Positions 301 through 33,261 of a DNA stretch of 33,261 bases are shown piece by piece. Position 1 is the first letter of the stretch; every line of letters begins with the position of its first letter. The notes under the pieces are model-generated. The model was given only the letters and a program-made list of their open reading frames with translations, searched no databases and had not been told where the DNA came from. A program made the translations under genes and the position numbers. Source of the DNA: a virus; UHGV virus genome UHGV-0185745; one strand, written 5' to 3'.

Positions 301-1464
301 TCACTCATCATCTTCTGTTTCGTACTCCACATCAGAAAGCCTGACCTCAAGCTCCAAGGACGTCGTGAAGCCGCTATTATTCAGAAAATGTGTCACCTTA
401 GTGATTGTCCAGTCCTGCTCGTCTATGACGCGCTTAAAGCCTGATACTTTGACCGGCGTTTCCGTGTAAATATCTGCACGACCGGTAGCCAGGATGATGG
501 AGAACTCCGCAACGCCCCGTTGCAGTTTATCCCACTTCGCCTGAGCGGCGCGCATGGCCTGCGCTTTCGTGGCATATACCGTGGTCAGGGCAAAAACGTT
601 ATCAGCCTCACCGGCCATGTATTCACCTTCGCGCGCTTCCGGTACTTTAGGCGCTTTCTTCTGCCTGACCGGTTTCGCTTTCGGGTGCTCCAGTGCGCGC
701 AGGTGTTTTTCTTTCTTTTTGCGTTTCAGTTTTACCTTCTGCTTTTGCGGTTTCGGGTCTTTGGTGTGTAACCACTTTGCTGTTACGCCGGTATAGGCTC
801 CACGGTCAGCAATCGCAAAATGATGGCGGTCGCCGTCACTGCGGGTGATGGTAATCTGCGGGATTTTTTTACCGCTGGCCGTCACCCCCTGCCCCGCTTT
901 GAGAAACAACAGTTTTCCCATTTTTACCGACACCTCACCGCCGTTGCGTTCTGCAAGACGGGTCAGGAATTTCGCATCAGATTCCTGCGACTGGTCGATG
1001 TGCGGGATTTTAATTCCGGCCAGTGACGGAGCGACACTGGCTTCCAGCTTGTTACGGGAGGCTATCGCCTCAACAATCGCACCGAGCGTGGTGTCATGCC
1101 AGGAGCCTTCACGGCGGGAATTGAGCGCCCCGCGGAAATCTGCACTCCGGGCGCGGATGGTGACCACATCCGGCGCGCCCCGGTGTTCGACCTCATCAAC
1201 GGTGAATTTCCCTTTGCATACCAGGGCAAAACCTTTCCAGCCGATATACACCGTCAGGACAGCGCCACGAACCGGCAGCCCGACCTGCCCGTCGGCATCG
1301 TTCAGTTCAATATCAAGCTGGTCAGCCTCAAAGCCCCGGTTATCCGTCAGGGTCATGCTCATCAGACGGTCACTGATATTGCCGGTAATATCCCTGCTGT
1401 CGAGCATCAGCATGTAATCCGGCGTCAGCGTACTGCCTGCATCAAATGTCAGCGCATCCAGCAT
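301..1464 (-). CDS. D: Tail protein D (baseplate hub-like, late control gene D), 387 aa
   Basis: Length and position identical to P2 gpD; follows U; stop/start overlap with U (TGATG). Confidence 0.88.
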   Translation of the reverse strand: MLDALTFDAGSTLTPDYMLMLDSRDITGNISDRLMSMTLTDNRGFEADQLDIELNDADGQVGLPVRGAVLTVYIGWKGFALVCKGKFTVDEVEHRGAPDVVTIRARSADFRGALNSRREGSWHDTTLGAIVEAIASRNKLEASVAPSLAGIKIPHIDQSQESDAKFLTRLAERNGGEVSVKMGKLLFLKAGQGVTASGKKIPQITITRSDGDRHHFAIADRGAYTGVTAKWLHTKDPKPQKQKVKLKRKKKEKHLRALEHPKAKPVRQKKAPKVPEAREGEYMAGEADNVFALTTVYATKAQAMRAAQAKWDKLQRGVAEFSIILATGRADIYTETPVKVSGFKRVIDEQDWTITKVTHFLNNSGFTTSLELEVRLSDVEYETEDDE

Positions 1465-7177: not shown

Positions 7178-8035
7178 TTAATGTAAAATTAACAATTGAT
7201 TCAGACGCTTATGTAATTTTGTGGTTCTAAATGTATGATGATCGTAACTCATACGCATATAACTATCTATCTCATCCAGACGCATGTTCTTATTTACAGA
7301 TATATCAGTTTCATACATCATTTTTAATATACATGTAAAGTCATGACCATTGCATATAGAAAAATGATCTGGCGACATTAATTCTAATTTACGCATTTCA
7401 TTATATAAATTTTTCGCATTAAAATCCTTATCAGTACGACTCCTGCTAAGCACATGATTTATATATTTGGTTTCATCAACTACAACATCTGTCCTGTTAA
7501 TACTTACAAAATTCCTGTAATTCATTCCTTTGAAATTAAGATTGCTATGTGTAAGATAATTGTACCATTTGAGAAGTCCGATTTTATAGCATGCACAAAG
7601 GATGTTCATCTTTACATCCTGACAGAATATATCGGCCAATTCCCCTTGAATTAATTTTCTATCTGTATGTGACATAATGAATTTATCAACCGCACCACCT
7701 TTTACTAACATCATTTCAAGGTCATGAGCATCAGTATAAAAAATCCCCTCGTGATTTATTCCGCTTAACTCATCAAAGTCCGCGTCACATACACCATACA
7801 CAGCATTATTACCTGCACGACGTAATTGACTAACAGCCAATATTACTTCACGTTTTCCATTTTCAGGTGATTCATAAATGATTCTATTATCAAGCCGATA
7901 TGCATTGAAAAATCGGATATCTGAAATGCCCTCAACCACAATCAATATACAACGTTGATACATTTCATTTCTGAATAAAAGCATCATACTACTCAACCAA
8001 TCATCTTCGCGAACAGCATTGCGTAATGACATCAT
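7178..8035 (-). CDS. TOPRIM-like (OLD-family/DUF4435-like) putative nuclease, 285 aa; AriB-like partner of upstream ATPase
   Basis: Conserved Glu in ILIVVEGISD (E35) and DxD in YGVCDADFDE (D84, D86) about 50 aa later, the TOPRIM pattern; ATG abuts the stop of the ATPase gene (TAAATG); AT-rich. Confidence 0.6.
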   Translation of the reverse strand: MMSLRNAVREDDWLSSMMLLFRNEMYQRCILIVVEGISDIRFFNAYRLDNRIIYESPENGKREVILAVSQLRRAGNNAVYGVCDADFDELSGINHEGIFYTDAHDLEMMLVKGGAVDKFIMSHTDRKLIQGELADIFCQDVKMNILCACYKIGLLKWYNYLTHSNLNFKGMNYRNFVSINRTDVVVDETKYINHVLSRSRTDKDFNAKNLYNEMRKLELMSPDHFSICNGHDFTCILKMMYETDISVNKNMRLDEIDSYMRMSYDHHTFRTTKLHKRLNQLLILH

Positions 8036-9280
8036 TTACTCGTTTCCTTCTGAAAGCTGTTGGCTTTCATTTCTATTTCTAATCATTTCATATAGATCGT
8101 ATGTTAATTCCCAATTCTTACTAATTACTTGTGGTGAATGAGTAGCAATAATGACCTTTTCATACTTGTTAATCTTTTGTATTTTTTTGAGAGAATCCAA
8201 GAAAGTTTGTTGCCAGGCGACATGTAATGATATTTCTGGCTCGTCTATAAGAATTACTTTTTGTGAAACAAAATCGAAAATCAAATTAAAAAGAAGAACT
8301 ATTTGGTTCTGTTCACCTGATGAAAGCAAATTACGATCAATAACATCGCCATTGTGACTTTTGAAATAAAATCCGTTATCTCTATCAATCATCACTTTTT
8401 TAAAAGCTAAAACCTTTTCTTTCAAAATTGATTCAAATAAATCAATTTTTTGATGTAATGTCTGAAACGGTGACAATTTTCCAAGGGCATCTTCAATATA
8501 TAGATCCAACACACTTAGATATTCATTGCTACTATAAAAACTTGTGCTTTTTTGAGGCATTAGCTCGTTATCAGCCTGAATAAGGCCATAACGCATATAA
8601 TGTCGACGTTTATCTTGAATACCATTTAAGCGATCTTGAATATTTTCTGATGAAAATCGTTTTGATTGCTCTAAACGCTCAAATAATCGAATAGGAAATG
8701 TAGCGTCTAATTTTTGTGATAATGCAGCGGAATCATCTTGTGCATTTTTCATTAAATATTTTAATTTTCTAGCACATAAGTCAATGACTGTTTCATCAAC
8801 AGCTTTGACTTGTAATCGATCTGCACATATAAAAGATACGTCTTCTTTCGATGTAATATGACTTAACACATCCGAAGATAATGGTTTATCAGTTCGTAAT
8901 TTTTGTTTTGGTTTAACATCCCCCCTATGCAAGCTTACATAAAATAACTCTTCCATAATAGATTCATCTGTCTGTAACTTGAGTCTTTCTTCCGTTCTGT
9001 TTCCTGAGCTATTATCCAGATGATTCAATATTAAACCATCTTTATTGGTGTCATGAGTAATTGAAACAGAGCCACCTTGAAAATCAATTTTAATAAAATC
9101 AAAATTAAGTTTACAGAGAGCATTTAATTCATTTGTAAGAATACTATTGATGATTTTAAGAATCATTGTCTTACCATATCCATTTGGACCAGTAAGCATA
9201 GTAATTTCATTGTTATCCAAGGGAATTTCATAATCAAGGAGACCAAATAGTTTTTTTACTTTTAAATGTATCAATTTCAT
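8036..9280 (-). CDS. ABC-type ATPase (SMC/RecF/OLD-like; AAA_15/AAA_21-type), 414 aa; AriA-like
   Basis: Walker A GPNGYGKT (9167..9190), ABC signature LSSGEQ (aa 319-324), Walker B VILIDEPE (aa 342-349), H-loop IIATHSP; good RBS GAGG 6 nt upstream of ATG 9280. Confidence 0.7.
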   Translation of the reverse strand: MKLIHLKVKKLFGLLDYEIPLDNNEITMLTGPNGYGKTMILKIINSILTNELNALCKLNFDFIKIDFQGGSVSITHDTNKDGLILNHLDNSSGNRTEERLKLQTDESIMEELFYVSLHRGDVKPKQKLRTDKPLSSDVLSHITSKEDVSFICADRLQVKAVDETVIDLCARKLKYLMKNAQDDSAALSQKLDATFPIRLFERLEQSKRFSSENIQDRLNGIQDKRRHYMRYGLIQADNELMPQKSTSFYSSNEYLSVLDLYIEDALGKLSPFQTLHQKIDLFESILKEKVLAFKKVMIDRDNGFYFKSHNGDVIDRNLLSSGEQNQIVLLFNLIFDFVSQKVILIDEPEISLHVAWQQTFLDSLKKIQKINKYEKVIIATHSPQVISKNWELTYDLYEMIRNRNESQQLSEGNE

Positions 9281-10310: not shown

Positions 10311-10889
10311 TTATTGCGGCATTTCCGGCCATTCTATATCCGGAGCATCTTCCGGCTGAACGCGATTCAGTAACACACGGTATTTTTTCCAGTGTGTCAG
10401 GCTTAACTTTTCTTCCTCGGTAGCCATATCTAAATCGACAGCATCCTGCAGCGTGGCAATGATTTCACCTGCATATGCAATCTGCTCTTTCTTCTGAGAC
10501 TCCGCCGCTCTGACAAGCGCATCACGCTCTGCATTCTCATCATTCACCCACGCATTTCCGTTCCATTTCTGATAATCCCCCTCCGGGGAAATGGCTGTCA
10601 CGTCTGGAGGTAATGCGCCAAGTTCAGAAATATAAATGGCTGCTCCCGTTTTCGTTTCGTAGACAGTCTTTCCGCGATGATCTTCCATCAACTCCCATTT
10701 CATTTCATCTGCATTGAAAACGGCAGCAAAACCCGCCGGAATATCAGGTGGTGCAATATCTGTACTGTTTGCAGGCAGGCCAGTATACGGCGGAATATAT
10801 GCATCACTTTCGCCAATAAACTCATTGGTTCCATCAAGTAAATTGAAAACGCGGATAGTTTGTGCTTCTGCACTCATTCTGAAAGCCAT
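10311..10889 (-). CDS. G: Tail fiber assembly protein G, 192 aa
   Basis: Immediately downstream of H with 1-nt stop/start overlap; tail-fiber chaperone position. Confidence 0.82.
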
Positions 10890-13507
10890 TATGCAAGCCT
10901 CACAATATAGTTAAATGCAATGTTTTTGACGGTGTTTTCGGTATTACCAGTAGCATTTACGGTAATGGAATGCCCGTGTGAGCCAATAGCAACAGTGTGT
11001 GAATGTGCACCAATACCAACAGTATGGTTATGTGCTCCAATGTCGACTGTATGTGCATGATTGCCTGATGAACTTGTAGTCGTAGCACCTTTATCACTTC
11101 GCGGAACACCATAATCTGCACCGCCTGATTGCACGCTCACAGCAAAACCGACGGTATGTGTATGATTGCCAGAAGTATTGGTTGATTTTGTGCCGTGGTT
11201 AAACGTACTGACTGTTTTTGTCCCGTAATCAAATGAACTGGTCGTTTTCGTTCCTAAGTCCGTACTTGACGCACTGGCGCTGTGAGTATGCGATTTAATC
11301 CCGTCCTGTTCCTGTGACAATACGGCACGCCCACTGGCGGGTTTGCCCTTGATTGTCCAGCCGCGCATATCAGGAATAACACCAGAAGGATAGGCAATAG
11401 CCAGTTTCGGATATGCAGCCTTATCAAACGTCTGCCCCTGCATGATCGCATAGCCTGCAGGTGGTGTATCTGATGGCCACGGCAGCGGAACACCTGGCGG
11501 AAACGCTTCAATATTTGCCGAGCCGTCAAATTTTACGCCGTTAATTGTCCTTGGCGTTTTCAGCTTTGTAGCTGTAGCCGCATTGCCGGACAGTTCGCCT
11601 GAAATACCGGCGCTGAAGGTTTGTTTCGCCGCCCATGTCTGAGCTTCGTCGATAATTGGCACACGTCTTGTCGTGATCGTGCGGCTTCCCGGATTTCCTG
11701 AAATACGCACCATAAAAAAGCGGTAATTCGCTTTACTTACAGTGCTGCGCCATACATGCATTGAGCGCCCCGTACCGGAATCATCACTCGGACCAACTGC
11801 GATGTTTATCAGGTTGCCATCAATGACGCCCCAGTCCATACCGTCGGGAATGTTGGTCATGTTATCAAGCCGCACGGTTATCAGACTGCCCGGCACAAAA
11901 TCGTAGGTCTGCCAGTCCAGACTGGATAGTTTTGCCACTGCGCCACCGATGCCCAGATTCAGAGGCAACGAAAAGGAGTTATATACTTCTCGCCATTCGG
12001 TCCATTTGCTCCCGGCGTAGACGCGCTCAAAAGTGCGTCCCTGTGTAGTTTCTGATTTCCCTGTGGTTGTGTAACGCTGCCAGACAGACACACCATCAAA
12101 ACGTCTGATTACTTCCAGTATCCCAAGTAGTGTCGCGCCAACGGTGTCCAGCATCGGACCGTTTGTTGCCTTTCCTGTAACACTGTAAATACCGGGGTCG
12201 GTTAGAACATTTAAATCACCTTCGTAATAACGACTCTCTGACTGATGACCGACTCTTAACCACGGTTCCCACTGCGGATTTGATGCATCCCAGCTTGCCG
12301 CAAGGCAGCGGACATACATATTTCCACGGCGAGTGGTATAACGTTGCGTTCTTCCATAATTTCCGCCTTCGAGGATCTCAAGCATCCCCTGAGCAAAGCC
12401 GCCTTCCTCTGGATAATTGCGTTCATATGAAGCTATAGCCGAGCTACTGTTACGCCATAAACCAAGATGTTCGGCGGCTCCAAGCGTATTCAGGTCTATA
12501 GTCGTACTCAAAGGGCGGGTAGCTGATTGAGTGTGACGCCATATGCCCCACGGACCATCAGAGCCATTCCACTTATTGGCGAGTCTGCGTATGTATACAT
12601 TGCCGTCTCTCGTGGTGAAGCGTTGCGTACCTGCAAAATTGCCGGCAGCAAAAACCTCAAGCACACCGACAGCATTATCTTCCGGGAAATTTTTCTCCAG
12701 TGTTGCGTTAGTTGAGGTAGCTTTAGACCAGATCCCCAGATAAGCCTTAACGGGACCAAATGTATTCAGATCAGCATCAAGCGGCATTTCGCCATTGTTT
12801 TTCATAAACGTCAGGCTGGTAACGCCAACATTGTCCAGAAAAGCACCCTTATCTGGAATATCGCCACCGTTCTGGTCTTTCTGCATACGTTTTTCAGCAT
12901 TGTCATAGGCTGCTTTTACTGCCTTTGGCGTCGCTGCCAGCTTTTCACTGGTGCTGTTTGTTGCACTGCTTAACTGAGTAAAACCTTTTTCTGTCAGCGT
13001 GGCGTCAGGATGGCGGCGGGACTGCTCATGCTCTGCGATTTTGTCATCGACGTAATCCTGCGTCGCCATCACTGTGCTGGCATCAATACTCAGCTCAACG
13101 GACGCCACATTGCTGAGAATAATAACCATGCGGCAGGTCTGCGCACGTCCGGAGCCTTCAGCCAGTTCTGGTTTATAGCTTTCTGCCATGTTGGATACCG
13201 CAATCAGTGTTCCGGCATCGTCATACAGACCAAGCTCACGCATCCAGAAGCCGCCCACTTCGGGCGGTACAACCAGTTCAGCCACGATATAGTTTTTATT
13301 CTTGTTATCCACGCTGACTTTATTCAGAGCGTGACGCCAGACCTCATGCACCAGTTTCGTCTGACCGGCATCCGGCACCGGCAATTTGCCATTACCGTCA
13401 CCCACGGCCATTGCAGACAGGGTTACTTTTTTCCCGCCTGGGACAGTGGCGGCTGCCAGCTTCGCGGCTCCGGCAGTAGTGATAACGGTTTTAAATTTCG
13501 TGCTCAT
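10889..13507 (-). CDS. H: Tail fiber protein H, 872 aa (mosaic; longer than P2 H)
   Basis: Large ORF after baseplate gene I with a Gly/Ala-rich N-terminus, three ~90-aa internal repeats and His-rich C-terminal HxH repeats typical of fiber tips. Confidence 0.88.
10958..11293 (-). repeat. His-rich short tandem repeats at H C-terminus (GxHxHTV[GD]IG units; GTKxxSxF units)
   Basis: Protein [42 protein letters not shown]; DNA shows ~21-bp repeated units near 10960-11060. Confidence 0.5.
11978..12775 (-). repeat. Three tandem ~90-aa coding repeats within H (DLNT[FL]G...LE[VI]...QR[FY]TT...[VY][IV]R...W)
   Basis: aa ~245-510 of H show three related units; coordinates approximate. Confidence 0.5.
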
Positions 13508-15933: not shown

Positions 15934-15999
15934 AACGGGAAGGATGCCGCCGGGTCATACCGGCGGCAATGTGACGATGAGGTGTCGGGAATGGCACAA

Positions 16000-16452
16000 C
16001 TAACGGTCGAGGTGAGCCAGGATAATCTCTTCAATCATCTGCACATCCTCACCGGTAAAGCCGAGCAGAGGGCGCGCCGGATAATCAATTTTCTTACCGT
16101 CTTTCCGGTTTTCTTCCGACAGACCGAACTGATGCACACTGGCGATTTTCGGTGACTTCCCGCCGTAAAACTCCATTGATGCCTGCTCCGGGCTGGCGCG
16201 GATATGCAAAAAACGACTGGTGATAAGTTTCGCAAACATTTTTCGCTTAACACGACCGGTCTTTTTTCTGGCGCTCTGCTGCTGGCGTGGCGCATAGGGT
16301 GTGCCATCCGGGGCTTTCTGTGCCATCACCCGACGCTGCTGACTCTGCCGCAGACGTTTCGCCAGTTCGGCGCTCAGTCGCCGACGCCCTGACGGTGACA
16401 GCGATTCAATCAGTCCGGCCAGCCGGTCTTCAAAACGCTTAAACTCATTCAT
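16000..16452 (-). CDS. S: Tail completion protein S, 150 aa
   Basis: P2 synteny R-S-V and length; 8-nt overlap with R. Confidence 0.85.
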   Translation of the reverse strand: MNEFKRFEDRLAGLIESLSPSGRRRLSAELAKRLRQSQQRRVMAQKAPDGTPYAPRQQQSARKKTGRVKRKMFAKLITSRFLHIRASPEQASMEFYGGKSPKIASVHQFGLSEENRKDGKKIDYPARPLLGFTGEDVQMIEEIILAHLDR

Positions 16453-16912
16453 CCCACTTGCTCACCAGTTCGCCATTGATATAAAGCTCCATCGGGCGGG
16501 TGACCGGCTCCGGCGGCGGAGGTTCCGGGATATTCTTCACATACAGCGCACCGTCAACCTCACTGACCAGCGTGCGCTCGGTCAGCATCAGGCTGATACT
16601 GATATCAAAGCTGCTGTCATTGTTGATGTCTGCATAAAATGTGAAGCCTTTTTTCTGGCCTTCGTCGGTGGTCATGATGTCGGGCTGATTTTCCCGCAGC
16701 CACGCCAGCACCGGCACGATGAGCAGGTCAAAATCACCGGTAAAGTCGGTCACAATCACATTGAGCGTGTAACGCTTTTCGAATGACAACGACGCAGCCA
16801 GTGTGGAGGCAATACTCCCGTTATCCACGAATATCCGCAGCATATCGGGGTTAGTTTTCAGCACCGTGACGGCATCAGTCAGCGCCCTGCGCAGGCTGTC
16901 GGGTTTGAGCAT
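16445..16912 (-). CDS. R: Tail completion protein R, 155 aa
   Basis: P2 synteny and length. Confidence 0.85.
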   Translation of the reverse strand: MLKPDSLRRALTDAVTVLKTNPDMLRIFVDNGSIASTLAASLSFEKRYTLNVIVTDFTGDFDLLIVPVLAWLRENQPDIMTTDEGQKKGFTFYADINNDSSFDISISLMLTERTLVSEVDGALYVKNIPEPPPPEPVTRPMELYINGELVSKWDE

Positions 16913-17165
16913 CGTTTTCGTCCTGACACTGTTTAATCATTTTTACCTGACTGGCACAACGTGCCAGCGCGTTCTCAAGCTGCCGGATATCGGCACTTAA
17001 ATCGCCGTTCGTCTGCGGCTCACTGCCCGGCATCGGGCAAAGGCTCACTTTCGGGCAGGCGTTGGCGACAATCACTGGCGTCGGTGCAGGCGGGGCGCTG
17101 GTGCAACCGGCGCACAGCATCAGGCAGGTCAGCGCCGTACCAGCGGCGAAAATCTTCGTTTTCAT
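16875..17165 (-). CDS. lysC: o-spanin LysC (outer-membrane lipoprotein), 96 aa, nested out-of-frame in lysB 3' end and extending past it
   Basis: Internal ATG (17165..17163) of track ORF 16875..17282 gives MKTKIFAAGTALTCLMLCAGC: signal peptide plus lipobox L-C-A-G-C. Confidence 0.72.
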   Translation of the reverse strand: MKTKIFAAGTALTCLMLCAGCTSAPPAPTPVIVANACPKVSLCPMPGSEPQTNGDLSADIRQLENALARCASQVKMIKQCQDENDAQTRQPAQGAD

Positions 17166-17445
17166 TGAGTAACCTCGTGATGGTTTTCTCGCGCTGTGCT
17201 TCACGCTTCGCGGCGTTCTCCAGTTCCTGACGCAGTGCCACCTGCGCCATCTCGTTTTTGTCTGCTCTGGTGAGGGCAACATGAAGCTGATTTTTCAGCA
17301 TGGTGATGGTCGTCTGCTGTTCACTGGCGACGTTATTCGCCCTGTCCAGCGAGGCGCGCAGGCTGTCATTTTTGTGTTTCACCAGAAACAGACCGGCCAC
17401 CGCCAGCGATAACAACACGACCAGCACAATCATCAGCTTTGACAT
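17020..17445 (-). CDS. lysB: i-spanin LysB, 141 aa
   Basis: N-terminal TMD (LMIVLVVLLSLAVAGLFLV) followed by coiled-coil region; P2 length. Confidence 0.8.
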   Translation of the reverse strand: MSKLMIVLVVLLSLAVAGLFLVKHKNDSLRASLDRANNVASEQQTTITMLKNQLHVALTRADKNEMAQVALRQELENAAKREAQREKTITRLLNENEDFRRWYGADLPDAVRRLHQRPACTDASDCRQRLPESEPLPDAGQ

Positions 17446-17858
17446 GGTTCCCGCCCCTCAAAACGCTGACGACAGGCCGTATGTATCAGCCGGAAAAACA
17501 GCGACGCCACGAGATAAATCAGCGCGGTAAAAATCCACCCGGCAGCAATCAGCGAGATAAACGTCGCCACCATCACCACCAGAGCCGCTGCCCGCCTGCG
17601 CCACGGCACCGGCTGCAAAAACAGCGACGTGACAATCTTCACGGCCAGCGATTCCGGCGGCAGCTCCCGCCCGTAGCGTTCAAGTACATACTCCGTGGCA
17701 TACACGCCGACACCACCGGCAACCACACAAATAACCGTCGCCAGAATCGCCCAGGCAGCGACAAAACTGACGGCTACGCTCTGCGGGTAAATCAGGGACA
17801 GTGCCAGCATCAGCGCCAGCGACACGTTCAGCATCAGTGAAAGGGATAATTTCTTCAT
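17433..17858 (-). CDS. lysA: LysA, multi-TMD lysis regulator (putative antiholin), 141 aa
   Basis: Four hydrophobic segments; position between K and lysB. Confidence 0.78.
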   Translation of the reverse strand: MKKLSLSLMLNVSLALMLALSLIYPQSVAVSFVAAWAILATVICVVAGGVGVYATEYVLERYGRELPPESLAVKIVTSLFLQPVPWRRRAAALVVMVATFISLIAAGWIFTALIYLVASLFFRLIHTACRQRFEGREPCQS

Positions 17859-17872
17859 GGTGTTTACTCCGT

Positions 17873-18370
17873 TTAAGCCGGTACGCCGCCAGCGGTACGC
17901 CAGACGGTGACCAGTTTTTCCAGTGAATGCTCACGCTGACCGTAACCGGCTCCCGGCAGGGACGCCCAGATATTGCGACAGCGTGAAATGGCGCGTTCAA
18001 TGCGTCCCGCCCGGATGTCATCCAGTGCACCGCGTTCGCGGATCAACTGAATGGCGAGCCTGTCCTGTGACAACGGACTGAAATCCGGCAGGGCAAGCTG
18101 TTTGCGGTAATGCGGCCAGAACAGGTAAAGCTGCTGATAGCGACCGGAGGCCGTGGATTTTTCACCGCGACGGTTAAACACCTTCGCCGGTCGGCCATGT
18201 GCGAACGGGTGGTCACTGTAGTCGGTGAAGATTTCCGGCCTCCCGTCCAGTCCGGTGACTATCACGTCATAGCCACGGTTTTTCGTCAGCGGATGATTCG
18301 CCGTCCCTTCGGACACGGCCAGCATGTCGAGAAAGGCGGCGATATTCTGGTGCGTGTTAATTACCGGCAT
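17873..18370 (-). CDS. K: Endolysin K (lysozyme-like), 165 aa
   Basis: Position between holin Y and lysA; LAVSEGT motif with catalytic-type Glu; P2 length. Confidence 0.85.
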   Translation of the reverse strand: MPVINTHQNIAAFLDMLAVSEGTANHPLTKNRGYDVIVTGLDGRPEIFTDYSDHPFAHGRPAKVFNRRGEKSTASGRYQQLYLFWPHYRKQLALPDFSPLSQDRLAIQLIRERGALDDIRAGRIERAISRCRNIWASLPGAGYGQREHSLEKLVTVWRTAGGVPA

Positions 18371-18651
18371 TACGGTTTCCCCCTGCCCTTAAAACGGCGC
18401 TGAATGGCAATCTCAATCACCTGATAACCGGCGATACCCAGCATGGAGCCGATGCCGCACACCGCAGGCAGTGACAGGTCAGGAAACTGCACCAGAACAA
18501 CACCGGCAACCATCGAGACAAAACCACCGAGCAACATGCGCCCGATAAACAGACGCGGGGTGATGGGTTCACCACCGGCAAGCACCTTGCCGACAACAAT
18601 CAGCACCCCAATCATGAAAAGCGACAGGACGCTTTTTTCTTCTGCTGTCAT
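18370..18651 (-). CDS. Y: Holin Y, 93 aa
   Basis: Small protein with hydrophobic TMDs and charged C-terminus directly upstream of the endolysin. Confidence 0.85.
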   Translation of the reverse strand: MTAEEKSVLSLFMIGVLIVVGKVLAGGEPITPRLFIGRMLLGGFVSMVAGVVLVQFPDLSLPAVCGIGSMLGIAGYQVIEIAIQRRFKGRGKP

Positions 18652-25349: not shown

Positions 25350-25368
25350 GTGCTTTCCCCGCCTCGCC
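25350..25368. other. cos site (19-nt cohesive-end sequence of P2 type)
   Basis: GTGCTTTCCCCGCCTCGCC is the reverse complement of the P2 cohesive end GGCGAGGCGGGGAAAGCAC as I recall it; located ~170 bp after Q, as in P2. Confidence 0.75.
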
Positions 25369-25641
25369 CGCCCGCTTCATGTTGCGGTTTTAATGCAAGT
25401 GCATAAACACGTCGAAACAGCACCAGTATTGGCGTAGTTGGCAAAGGGCATGAAATCAAAACACATGCAATTTAATGCAATAACGTCAGTATTACCAAGG
25501 ACAACAGAAACTAAGGTAATATCGCATAAAAAACCGACGAATCATGTCGTAGATTCAACTTTATCAGGCAGTTTTCACCGGTAGTACACAATTAAGTCTG
25601 ACGTCTTGTTCCTATTGAGTAGATTAAGATCTCGAATCTTC

Positions 25642-25762: not shown

Positions 25763-27244
25763 ATGGAAATCAAAGAATTTGTCAGCCAGTACAAAAACCA
25801 CCCAGTTCTTTTTATAGGCACAGGTTTTAGTCTAAGATATCTGCAAAACTCATTCAGTTGGGATGGGTTATTGATGAAAATTGCCGTTGATTTAACTGGC
25901 AACCCTGAATTTTATTATGATCTTAAATCGGAAAGTATTGAAGGTGACGAATACAGATACGACATTCTTGCAACAAAATTAGAGAATATCTTCAATAAGA
26001 AACTCGCCGAAGACAGAAACGGAAAGTTTGAAAGCATCAATGATATTTTCTACGAGAACATGAGTCATGGAAAAAAACTTAGCCGATTCAAAATATACCT
26101 AACATCAATATTAAAAGACTCACCTCTCAAAGAAGATTTAAGAGATGAAATTAACAGCTTAATAAAAACAAGAAAGAATATTGGCTCAATTATTACTACC
26201 AATTACGATCAACTTATCGAAAATTTATTCGATTTCTCTCCGCTTATTGGCAACAATATATTGCTAAGCAATCCATATGGCTCGGTATATAAAATACACG
26301 GTTGTGTTAGTGACCCCAATAACATAATCATAACATCTGATGATTATAATAACTTTAATGACAAATATGAGTTAATACGTGCTCAACTATTATCTATATT
26401 CATTCACAACCCCATTATTTTTTTAGGATATAGCATCAGCGACAAGAATATTAAATACCTCCTGCAGACAATATTTTCATATGTAGATCTAAATACTGAA
26501 CTAGCAAAAAAAATAAAAGACAACTTTCTCCTTGTTGAATATGATGAGGGGAACATGTCTACAACTATTTCTGAACATGATATTAACATTGAAGGTTTAT
26601 CCATTATAAGAATTAACAAAATCAAAACAGACAATTACAAAGCCGTTTACGATGCCATATCTAATTTAATTCTCCCTGTTTCCGCAATGGATATAAGAAA
26701 AGTACAAAAAGTCTGGAATACAATAAAAAGTGGCGGTGAAATCAAGGTAAAAATCACGGAAAACCTCGATGAATTACGGAATGAAGAAATGGTAATCGCT
26801 GTAGGCTCAGAAAGAACTGTTACCTACGAATACCAGACAAAATCTGAAATGATTCAAAATTACTTTAAAATTGTCGATGAAGCTAACGCACAACTCATTG
26901 CACTTTTGAATAAACAAACTATCACAAATCATGAGCACTTTCCAATTTACGCATTTAGTTCTGTATGCCCTGAATTAGAAAACGTTCAGCTATACAAAGA
27001 CAGACAATTGGATAAGATAATAAATCAACTCACTAGAATTAAAGCGTGCAAATGTGATGCAACAACAATAGATGAGATATTAGAAACAACAAAAGAATAT
27101 AAAGTAGCCAATACAATCATGTATTGTGTACTTAATGACACAATTTCCTTAGCACAACTCAGAAAATATCTTATCTCTATATCACACAAAATAGATACTC
27201 ATTACCGTAAATTATTGTGCCTGTATGATTTTCTATCATACTAA
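25763..27244 (+). CDS. SIR2-like domain protein (putative NAD+-hydrolysing defence effector), 493 aa; C-terminal ~250 aa of unknown function
   Basis: N-terminal Rossmann-type VLFIGTGFS (aa 15-23), IITTNYDQLIE (N147, D149), KIHGC (H179), FLGYSISD (aa 220-227): the pattern I associate with SIR2_2-type domains of ThsA/DSR proteins; strongly AT-rich; sits at the P2 tin/old slot. Confidence 0.5.
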   Translation: MEIKEFVSQYKNHPVLFIGTGFSLRYLQNSFSWDGLLMKIAVDLTGNPEFYYDLKSESIEGDEYRYDILATKLENIFNKKLAEDRNGKFESINDIFYENMSHGKKLSRFKIYLTSILKDSPLKEDLRDEINSLIKTRKNIGSIITTNYDQLIENLFDFSPLIGNNILLSNPYGSVYKIHGCVSDPNNIIITSDDYNNFNDKYELIRAQLLSIFIHNPIIFLGYSISDKNIKYLLQTIFSYVDLNTELAKKIKDNFLLVEYDEGNMSTTISEHDINIEGLSIIRINKIKTDNYKAVYDAISNLILPVSAMDIRKVQKVWNTIKSGGEIKVKITENLDELRNEEMVIAVGSERTVTYEYQTKSEMIQNYFKIVDEANAQLIALLNKQTITNHEHFPIYAFSSVCPELENVQLYKDRQLDKIINQLTRIKACKCDATTIDEILETTKEYKVANTIMYCVLNDTISLAQLRKYLISISHKIDTHYRKLLCLYDFLSY

Positions 27245-31230: not shown

Positions 31231-31517
31231 TTCCATACCCTCCGGCTTTTCAGAAAGGTCAGAGCCTTTTTTAACGGACTCTGTTTTTTGGTGCGGATAA
31301 TGATTCCCTTGCGTCCCTTCCCGTGGGTGATGGTAAAGTCAATCGCCCTGGGGCTTTCGTTACGCAATAACTGAGCAATACAACGAGGCTCGTTCATCCT
31401 TTCCACCTTAAGCCGCACGGCCATGTCTTGATTTGCTGTAACTAATGCGATTTTTCCAGTCATGCCATTCTGTCGGAGCTTCATCAACCAGTTGGGCTGC
31501 GTACTTGTCCCACTCAC
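31227..31517 (-). CDS. Hypothetical small early protein (start uncertain; 78 aa if ATG 31463)
   Basis: ORF between cox-like gene and B; stop overlaps the B start (ATGA). Confidence 0.4.
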   Translation of the reverse strand: MSGTSTQPNWLMKLRQNGMTGKIALVTANQDMAVRLKVERMNEPRCIAQLLRNESPRAIDFTITHGKGRKGIIIRTKKQSPLKKALTFLKSRRVWK

Positions 31518-31779
31518 GGCGATTAATCCATAATTCAGCTTTCCCTCTTGGTTTTAATGGGTCTGTCATGTAGAAGGCTGGCAGCTTTCCTGCTTTAGCC
31601 ATTTCAGCCACCGCGCGTGGTGTCTTACCGATGTAAAGAGCAAAACCTTCTTTCGACAGCAAATCAGATGGGCGCTCTGAAATCTGAATGCTTTTACGTT
31701 TGGCTTCATTTTCGAAACTTGCCTCATCGCTAGTTGGACAAGAAATTTCTACATTTGTCGTCACTTTGCTATCCTCCAT
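31408..31779 (-). CDS. cox: Cox/Apl-like HTH regulator (excisionase / early-promoter switch protein), up to 123 aa
   Basis: First gene of the early operon, divergent from the repressor; HTH-like FALYIGKTPRAVAEMAKAGKLP; no SD upstream of ATG 31779, so the start is uncertain. Confidence 0.55.
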   Translation of the reverse strand: MEDSKVTTNVEISCPTSDEASFENEAKRKSIQISERPSDLLSKEGFALYIGKTPRAVAEMAKAGKLPAFYMTDPLKPRGKAELWINRREWDKYAAQLVDEAPTEWHDWKNRISYSKSRHGRAA

Positions 31780-31872
31780 AAGATTTGCGATTCACCAACT
31801 GGAGCCATCTAGAGCCTTTTTGAGTGAATCACAAATTACCAAGTAGCAATATAATTGGAGATTAGCAAAATT
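31780..31872. promoter_or_regulatory. Immunity switch region between cox-like gene and C (early/repressor promoters and operators)
   Basis: Short gap between divergent regulators; TATAAT at 31850-31855; similar half-sites GATTCACCAA / GAATCACAAA. Confidence 0.45.
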
Positions 31873-32172
31873 ATGTCAAGTGAACAAAGTGAGAAACTAA
31901 AGCTCATCCGTGAATCCGAACGCCTTAAAACTAAGGAACTTGCTGAATTAATTGGAATTAATTACTACACATATCATGGATATGAATCAGGAAAATCAAA
32001 AATGCCTATGGAAGCAGGTATGAAGCTGTTTAAGCATCCACGCTTTCGCAAGTATCGTGACTGGTTCATGTTTGATGAAACAGATCCAGCAGCTGGACAA
32101 ATAGCCCCGGCTCTCGCACACATTGGGCAAGACTCAACAACCTTGCACCACTCAGACCAGAAGACTGGCTGA
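31873..32172 (+). CDS. C: Immunity repressor C, 99 aa
   Basis: ATG 31873 preceded by GGAG; HTH LAELIGINYYTYHGYESG; gene immediately upstream of int; the track ORF starts at an upstream TTG. Confidence 0.75.
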   Translation: MSSEQSEKLKLIRESERLKTKELAELIGINYYTYHGYESGKSKMPMEAGMKLFKHPRFRKYRDWFMFDETDPAAGQIAPALAHIGQDSTTLHHSDQKTG

Positions 32173-32265
32173 CGATTTATTCAGCATATGTGTGTAGTAA
32201 ATGTACGAAAGAAAATTGCATTAATTTTCAAGTAGTAGAAGTAAACAGCGTCATCGGAGGGCTTT

Positions 32266-33261
32266 ATGTCTATTAAAAAGCTCGATGATGGTCGTTATGA
32301 AGTGGACGTCAGACCGCAGGGTGCAGATGGAAAACGTATCAGGCGGAAATTTAAAACTAAAGGTGAAGCTCAGGCATTCGAACGTCATGTACTGGTTAAC
32401 TACCACAACAAAGAGTGGTTGGAGAAACCAGCCGACCGCCGAACTCTTACAGAGTTGTTAGGTAGATGGTGGATATATCACGGAAAATCACATGAGCGTG
32501 GAGATATTGAACGGGGGCGTTTAACGACAATAATCGCCAAATTTGCAGAGATGGGAGTGTCCAGAGCTGACCAGCTAACAAAGAAAACGATAACTGATTA
32601 TCGCGTTGTAATGATGAACGATGGTCTAAAACCAGCCAGCGTAAATCGACATCTGGCAATAATGAGCGGGATGTTCACCAAGTTAATTGACGCCGGTGAA
32701 TACCACTCCCACAACCCGTTCCGTGAGATTAAACGGTTACGTGAAGCTGTTACGGAAATGGCTTTTTTGTCCAGTGAAGAGATTACGCGGCTGTTATCCA
32801 TGCTTGATGGTGATGAATTAAATGCAACTCTGGTCTGCCTTTCTACTGGTGGACGCTGGAGTGAAGTGTCTAATTTAAAAGCTGAACACATCATTAACCA
32901 GATGGTTACGTTTATGAAAACTAAAAACGGAAAACGCAGGACAATTCCCGTTTCGCAGGACCTGATTAAACGGATCAAGACCAAAAATTCAGGCAGGCTT
33001 TTTAATGCCAGTTACTACAAAGTGCGTAACGCTCTCAGGGAAGTAAAACCCGATTTACCTGACGGACAAGCAGTACATGTTTTGAGGCATACATTTGCCA
33101 CACATTTTATAATGAATGGAGGTAACATAATCACATTGCAGCGCATCCTGGGTCATTCTAATATTCAGCAAACTATGACCTACGCACACTTTGCACCGGA
33201 TTTCTTACAAGATGCTGTGACTCTTAACCCGGTGTCAGGAATGTCCATAATGCGTCCATAA
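32266..33261 (+). CDS. int: Tyrosine integrase, 331 aa
   Basis: C-terminal catalytic signature HVLRHTFATHFIMNGGNIITLQRILGHSNIQQTMTYAHF (R...HxxR...Y); GGAGGG RBS; terminal position. Confidence 0.9.
   Translation: MSIKKLDDGRYEVDVRPQGADGKRIRRKFKTKGEAQAFERHVLVNYHNKEWLEKPADRRTLTELLGRWWIYHGKSHERGDIERGRLTTIIAKFAEMGVSRADQLTKKTITDYRVVMMNDGLKPASVNRHLAIMSGMFTKLIDAGEYHSHNPFREIKRLREAVTEMAFLSSEEITRLLSMLDGDELNATLVCLSTGGRWSEVSNLKAEHIINQMVTFMKTKNGKRRTIPVSQDLIKRIKTKNSGRLFNASYYKVRNALREVKPDLPDGQAVHVLRHTFATHFIMNGGNIITLQRILGHSNIQQTMTYAHFAPDFLQDAVTLNPVSGMSIMRP

Follow-up and report, generated by a model that had tools for sequence, protein, structure and literature searches.

Identity and organization of the lysB/lysC locus

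At positions 16875-17445 of the window, which is the whole 33,261-nt stretch of UHGV virus genome UHGV-0185745, two open reading frames share part of their DNA in different frames, raising the question of whether they encode the inner- and outer-membrane subunits of a phage spanin and, if so, in which genetic arrangement. The first-pass annotation read them as the i-spanin/o-spanin arrangement of phage P2, and this assignment holds: the 2.3-kb lysis region shares 97% DNA identity with phage P2 and with many Peduovirus genomes, the gene geometry is the same and the equivalog models for both proteins are passed. In the P2 record lysB occupies 7922-8347 and lysC 8202-8492, and the gene lengths, the 280-nt offset and the overlaps of 146 nt and 38 nt are all the same as those found here. 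LysB is identical to P2 LysB at 135 of 141 residues (96%) and LysC to P2 LysC at 91 of 96 (95%); the six amino-acid changes in the former and five in the latter spare the transmembrane core, the lipobox, the cysteines and the first prolines. Also shared with P2 are the gene order Y-K-lysA-lysB-lysC-R, protein lengths of 141 and 96 residues, the +1 frame with both overlaps, the LCAGC lipobox, four periplasmic cysteines in LysC and two in LysB, and an internal hairpin.

Family models give the same picture. LysB matches the TIGR03495 phage_LysB equivalog over residues 7-140 (176.2 bits, cutoff 92.75, E = 3.7e-52) and the Rz-like spanin family PHROG 89 (E = 1.3e-61), and LysC matches the NF038368 P2_Rz1 equivalog (127.6 bits, cutoff 27, E = 1.5e-37), the Pfam LysC family PF23793 (63.9 bits, cutoff 27, E = 1.3e-17) and PHROG 456, again an Rz-like spanin. 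A search of the PDB with the LysB and LysC sequences returned no solved relatives. Queried as a 571-nt sequence, the region is present in 1609 of 5426 complete E. coli genomes (~30%), five of them at 100% identity, and RefSeq names the genes lysB and lysC in the 100%-identical genomes. We conclude with high confidence that the region belongs to a P2-like (Peduovirus) prophage and carries its two-component spanin genes, lysB and lysC. P2 lysB/lysC is the type example of an overlapped two-component spanin and is listed as experimentally tested (PMC6139136; PMC3556154). The pair is therefore already known and nothing new is encoded here; as a textbook, RefSeq-named P2 overlapped spanin pair, the locus has little discovery value.

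Here all genes are read from the minus strand. The 141-residue i-spanin (inner-membrane spanin subunit) gene lysB spans 17020-17445, as defined by its ORF and translation, P2 identity, TIGR03495 and PHROG 89. The 96-residue o-spanin (outer-membrane lipoprotein subunit) gene lysC, placed by P2 identity, NF038368, PF23793 and PHROG 456, spans 16875-17165. Its ATG at 17165 lies 280 nt inside lysB, an offset that puts lysC in the +1 frame relative to lysB; the 146 nt at 17020-17165 thus encode both the C-terminus of LysB and the N-terminus of LysC. Past the lysB stop at 17020, lysC continues for 145 nt to 16875. The limits given in the first-pass annotation coincide exactly with the lysB start and the lysC stop on this strand, and the internal ATG in another frame and the run beyond the lysB stop, which it also reported, are both as described. 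The word "nested" in its title is not accurate, and its own text had lysC running past the lysB stop. Overlapped and embedded spanin classes are defined in PMC3556154 and PMC6139136, and the gene belongs to the first: lysC, out of frame with lysB, opens within that gene and closes 145 nt past its stop, which is not the embedded arrangement of the lambda Rz/Rz1 type. The RefSeq note on lysC likewise describes it as "substantially overlapping although not fully embedded".

The 3' end of lysC overlaps the start of the tail-completion gene R (16445-16912, minus strand; PF06891, E = 3.1e-45) by 38 nt (16875-16912), as in P2. Holin, endolysin and lysA lie directly upstream of lysB/lysC, and the tail-completion genes R and S lie downstream. 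The upstream remainder of the lysis cassette (17433-18651, minus strand), recognized from Pfam, PHROG and P2 annotation, comprises holin Y (18370-18651; PF04550 holin, E = 2.6e-42), endolysin K (17873-18370; PHROG and P2 annotation) and LysA (17433-17858; PHROG and P2 annotation), and lysA runs 13 nt into the start of lysB. PHROG matches among these upstream genes are to PHROG 90, an endolysin family, and PHROG 162. PHROGs labels LysA as "endolysin"; the protein has four hydrophobic segments and belongs to the NCBIfam DNZ54_00345 family, and the label looks like an annotation carry-over. The true endolysin K, assigned to GH104 in RefSeq, gave no Pfam match at E <= 0.01.

Topology of LysB and proposed function of the pair

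The N-terminus of LysB reads MSKLMIVLVVLLSLAVAGLFLVKHKN... and contains a transmembrane helix at residues 4-22, LMIVLVVLLSLAVAGLFLV (17380-17436, minus strand), which is the top 19-residue Kyte-Doolittle window with a mean of 3.1. A Kyte-Doolittle scan of LysB found no second hydrophobic segment. Since residues 4-22 are the sole strongly hydrophobic stretch, the earlier description of LysB as a protein with an N-terminal transmembrane domain is supported. The predicted topology places a long, charged periplasmic domain after the helix, with two cysteines in the periplasm; SpaninDB has the periplasmic domain of P2 LysB begin at K23 (PMC6139136).

For comparison with relatives we used 12 Peduoviridae sequences, namely the window and 11 other loci, in which LysC identity runs from 95% down to ~37% and the phage hosts belong to eight genera (Escherichia, Salmonella, Klebsiella, Erwinia, Yersinia, Burkholderia, Pseudomonas and Aeromonas). 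In all 12, the N-terminus of the i-spanin includes a hydrophobic window with a Kyte-Doolittle mean of at least 1.87, and cysteines in LysB are found, among the 12, only in the enterobacterial P2/186 group.

In lambda Rz/Rz1, as in the present pair, an inner-membrane protein with an N-terminal transmembrane domain is combined with a small outer-membrane lipoprotein that is rich in proline and read from the +1 frame, and both genes follow those for holin and endolysin. The lambda pair differs in that Rz1 lies wholly inside Rz, whereas here lysC passes the lysB stop, and in that Rz1 is shorter than LysC and has one periplasmic cysteine against four. There is no significant sequence similarity to lambda Rz/Rz1, and LysB matches other Rz-like PHROGs weakly. 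The LysB/LysC mechanism was derived from the Rz/Rz1 model (PMC6139136), so that membrane fusion, established for lambda Rz/Rz1, would be carried over to P2 by analogy. Both proteins are made from a single late transcript, that of the P2 O operon, and translation of lysC begins at its own Shine-Dalgarno sequence and ATG. On the Rz/Rz1 model, LysB would be held in the inner membrane by its anchor and reach into the periplasm. LysC would undergo export, lipidation on Cys21 and cleavage by signal peptidase II, and sorting would bring it to the inner leaflet of the outer membrane. The subunits would bind one another across the periplasm, passing through the meshes of the peptidoglycan. Once holin Y and endolysin K have destroyed the peptidoglycan, the complexes would be free to collapse; this collapse would fuse the two membranes and so take away the last obstacle to the release of phage. 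By analogy with lambda and T4, intermolecular disulfides are probably needed. A literature search on P2 complementation found nothing.

Lysis-timing regulation, with no role in disrupting the outer membrane, would be another function for lysB and lysC. In the P2 GenBank record, lysB carries the description "nonessential; affects timing of lysis" and lysC the description "regulation of lysis". PMC3556154, with reference to Markov et al. 2004, states that proline mutants of lysC bring about early lysis when the peptidoglycan of the cells is weakened. Kongari et al., however, treat P2 as an experimentally tested spanin system. The topology, the gene arrangement and the family models are also of the spanin type, and timing effects are compatible with spanin function. 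Nor does non-essentiality set the pair apart, being likewise the phenotype of lambda Rz/Rz1 in shaken cultures without divalent cations. We thus consider it very unlikely that LysB and LysC are regulators of timing rather than outer-membrane disruptors, and retain the spanin function.

Start codon of lysC

A GAGG Shine-Dalgarno sequence (17173-17176, minus strand) lies 7 nt upstream of the ATG at 17165, within the lysB codons for a conserved TRLL motif, and the surrounding acGAGGttac is kept in enterobacterial relatives. In seven relatives, in-frame stop codons occur 0-4 codons upstream of Met1, which marks 17165 as the real start of lysC. The longer mechanical ORF of 135 residues, opening at an ATG at 17282 (39 codons upstream), was rejected: it has no Shine-Dalgarno sequence and is closed by stops in relatives.

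A later start, at Met16, would give an 81-residue protein beginning MLCAGC... that has no signal peptide and would not be a lipoprotein. This is the start adopted by RefSeq/PGAP for WP_205729784.1, from a genome 100% identical to the window here, and the Pfam LysC model begins at residue 16 too. Against it, Met16 is not conserved, L or T standing there in relatives, whereas residues 1-15, which form the n- and h-regions of the signal peptide, are conserved and include an invariant G9 and L15. The GAGG is spaced 7 nt from Met1 and the upstream stops of the seven relatives stand immediately ahead of it; moreover, the NCBIfam model alignment begins at LysC residue 4, and both P2 GenBank and SpaninDB use Met1. 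The Met16 start was therefore rejected on the conservation of residues 1-15, the Shine-Dalgarno sequence and the upstream stops, and we regard a LysC lacking its signal peptide as extremely improbable.

Other phage records start lysC even later, giving proteins of 52 residues in SW9, EtG and MHG7 and of 38 residues in 500465-1, with starts at the lysB end or just after it. The locus is of some practical use to annotators: in the RefSeq protein for this exact sequence and in several deposited phage records, the start chosen for lysC lies too far downstream, and the signal peptide is lost.

Signal peptide and lipobox of LysC

The N-terminus of LysC reads MKTKIFAAGTALTCLMLCAGCTSAPPAPTPVIV..., with the signal and predicted cleavage site MKTKIFAAGTALTCLMLCAG↓CTSAPP... 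From the translation, the predicted signal peptide comprises residues 1-20 (17106-17165, minus strand), in which a basic n-region with K2 and K4 precedes a hydrophobic core (h-region Kyte-Doolittle 1.8-2.1) and a glycine occupies position -1. The lipobox L-C-A-G-C lies at 17103-17117, with the predicted lipidated Cys21 at 17103-17105. Position +2 of the mature protein is Thr and not Asp, the latter being the Lol avoidance signal, which under the Lol rule is consistent with sorting to the outer membrane. The mature N-terminus is proline-rich (8 prolines among the first 30 residues), and mature LysC has four more cysteines beyond Cys21. For this sequence type, Kongari et al. and SpaninDB give a lipobox "LCAG", a 20-residue signal and four periplasmic cysteines (PMC6139136).

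The first-pass annotation called this lipobox clear, and here its claim stands only in part: the lipobox is present and carries an invariant Cys21, but LCAGC matches neither of the strict patterns applied (PROSITE PS00013-type and [LVI][ASTVI][GAS]C), because a cysteine occupies position -3, where Leu, Val or Ile is usual. The six sequences of the P2/186 group, with LCAGC or LCVGC, all fail the strict patterns likewise. Among the other six of the 12 (TLSGC, LLSGC, LLAGC and (T/M)LCAC), every one passes the PROSITE-type pattern at the aligned Cys21, and four pass the classic [LVI][ASTVI][GAS]C pattern, the two Burkholderia (T/M)LCAC sequences failing it. Failure of LCAGC under strict patterns was not taken as a refutation, given that the aligned cysteine of relatives passes and that SpaninDB assigns LCAG↓C. 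The lipoboxes of o-spanins are often off consensus, and a deviant AWAC has been verified experimentally (PMC6139136). Cys18 was considered as the lipidated residue (LMLC) and rejected: this would put Leu at position -1, and relatives do not conserve Cys18. A literature search for a direct demonstration of P2 LysC lipidation did not find one.

The enterobacterial P2/186 group without exception carries the cysteine at -3 (LCAG↓C or, among 186-like phages, LCVG↓C). That it is functional rather than tolerated noise seems very unlikely, if conceivable; were it so, it might slow processing by Lgt/LspA and thereby tune when active spanin accumulates. Alternatively, it could do no more than reflect a constraint from the overlapping lysB codons, which encode part of the conserved ...RPAC... 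region. Whichever explains it, LysB and LysC would remain an ordinary spanin pair.

There is a practical consequence for prediction. Pattern-based lipobox rules miss the LysC family, so automated lipoprotein and spanin finders can give false negatives; where the first-pass annotation would have taken the lack of a predicted signal peptidase II site as evidence against the pair, such a false negative is possible with pattern-based tools.

Conservation and dual coding of the overlap

The architecture is conserved throughout the 12 Peduoviridae sequences: in every one the o-spanin gene begins within that of the i-spanin, in the +1 frame, the two sharing 146-176 nt, and the o-spanin signal peptide ends at an invariant Cys21 preceded always by G or A at -1. 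Position +2 is T, G, N or S and never Asp. Three more o-spanin cysteines are invariant across the 12, and the fourth is absent only in phiCTX. Phage 186/Eganvirus, Fels-2, phiCTX, phiE12-2 and KS14 thus share with the present pair the overlapped +1 architecture, the position of Cys21, NGDL and the cysteine pattern, while these other Peduoviridae differ in the lipobox (LCVGC, TLSGC, LLAGC or (T/M)LCAC) and in the length of the overlap, within the range of 146-176 nt.

Substitutions were compared between single- and double-coding DNA using relatives ~72% identical to the window (SW9, EtG, a 186-like phage and Kp4886-2). In lysB-only DNA nucleotide identity amounts to 0.57-0.59, with third-position differences of 50-55 of 93, and in lysC-only DNA to 0.67-0.72, with third-position differences of 20-21 of 36. 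In the lysB/lysC overlap, identity rises to 0.80-0.87, and the differences at lysB third positions are 7-12 of 49. Substitutions are in excess at third positions in the single-coding parts but no longer so in the overlap, which is the most conserved DNA of the locus; this is the pattern expected if both frames are under selection.

How far the signal alone would distinguish lysC from chance was assessed with a relaxed lipoprotein-signal rule, consisting of a start codon, at least one early K or R, no acidic residue, a hydrophobic core and [GAS]C. Over the six frames of the window, this rule returned 2 candidates against 0.99 +/- 0.94 in first-order Markov simulations, so a lipoprotein signal is not significant by itself (2 observed against ~1 expected by chance). 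Long alternative-frame ORFs (>100 aa) are frequent in this region as well. The significance of lysC rests on its position, its family matches and its conservation, and not on the sequence feature alone. That the +1 ORF is an unexpressed chance open frame in GC-rich DNA, as the frequency of ORFs above 100 aa in alternative frames and the roughly one lipoprotein-like start expected per window might suggest, has a negligible probability and is ruled out by conservation: the ORF, its signal peptide, the lipidated cysteine and the periplasmic cysteines are kept down to ~37% identity across eight host genera, the overlap is constrained in two frames, and curated family models match LysC.

Two further matches to the relaxed rule were seen. 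One is the second candidate in the window, a 59-aa ORF at 617-796 (plus strand) with the lipoprotein-like start …FCLTGFAFG↓C, within a stretch that aligns with the P2 tail-gene operon; about one relaxed-rule match per window is expected by chance. The other is the N-terminus of the LysB homologue of Burkholderia phage phiE12-2 (MNLSRLMPWLALLALIALVASCQHGR), which satisfies the rule at VAS↓C and may be a chance match or a transmembrane domain mimicking a lipobox.

The hairpin within lysC, GCUGGCAC-GUU-GUGCCAGU (16950-16968, minus strand), matches the P2 "putative transcription attenuator" at 8399-8417. Its fold has a free energy of -22.3 kcal/mol and a z of -2.2, and it lacks a downstream U run. 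A terminator scan at the position of the P2 attenuator detected nothing.

The surrounding prophage

The window as a whole is an ordinary P2-like E. coli prophage, shown in reverse orientation, whose cargo has been exchanged at the loci that usually vary. It extends from ogr, at position 1, as far as int, and the cos junction falls near 25350-25397. The stretch at the P2 Z/fun locus (7178-9280, minus strand) has no P2 similarity and holds instead a two-gene pair made up of a 414-aa AAA_15 ATPase (PADLOC AriA, E = 1.9e-25; also PtuA-like) and a 285-aa DUF4435 protein (AriB, E = 2.6e-21). From these matches, it is predicted to be a PARIS-like pair for anti-phage defence, at a site known as a cargo hotspot in P2. 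In place of old and tin, the P2 old/tin locus (25763-27244, plus strand) encodes a 493-aa SIR2-like protein, with matches to Pfam SIR2_2 (E = 3.2e-22) and to the PADLOC candidate system PDC-S25 (E = 6.4e-157).

P2 orf30 (786 nt, non-essential) is absent, and 64 nt with no P2 match lie between S and V (15934-15997). In the tail-fibre gene H region, the distal part (10335-12901) has no P2 match, and a Caudo_TAP tail-fibre assembly gene at 10311-10889 (minus strand; E = 5e-40) differs from P2 G; together, the gene H and tail-fibre assembly region looks like a swapped host-range module. Finally, the immunity/integrase end of the window (31412-33261) has 66-70% identity to P2 C/int or no match, and this low identity points to a prophage that probably has another immunity type and another attachment site than P2.
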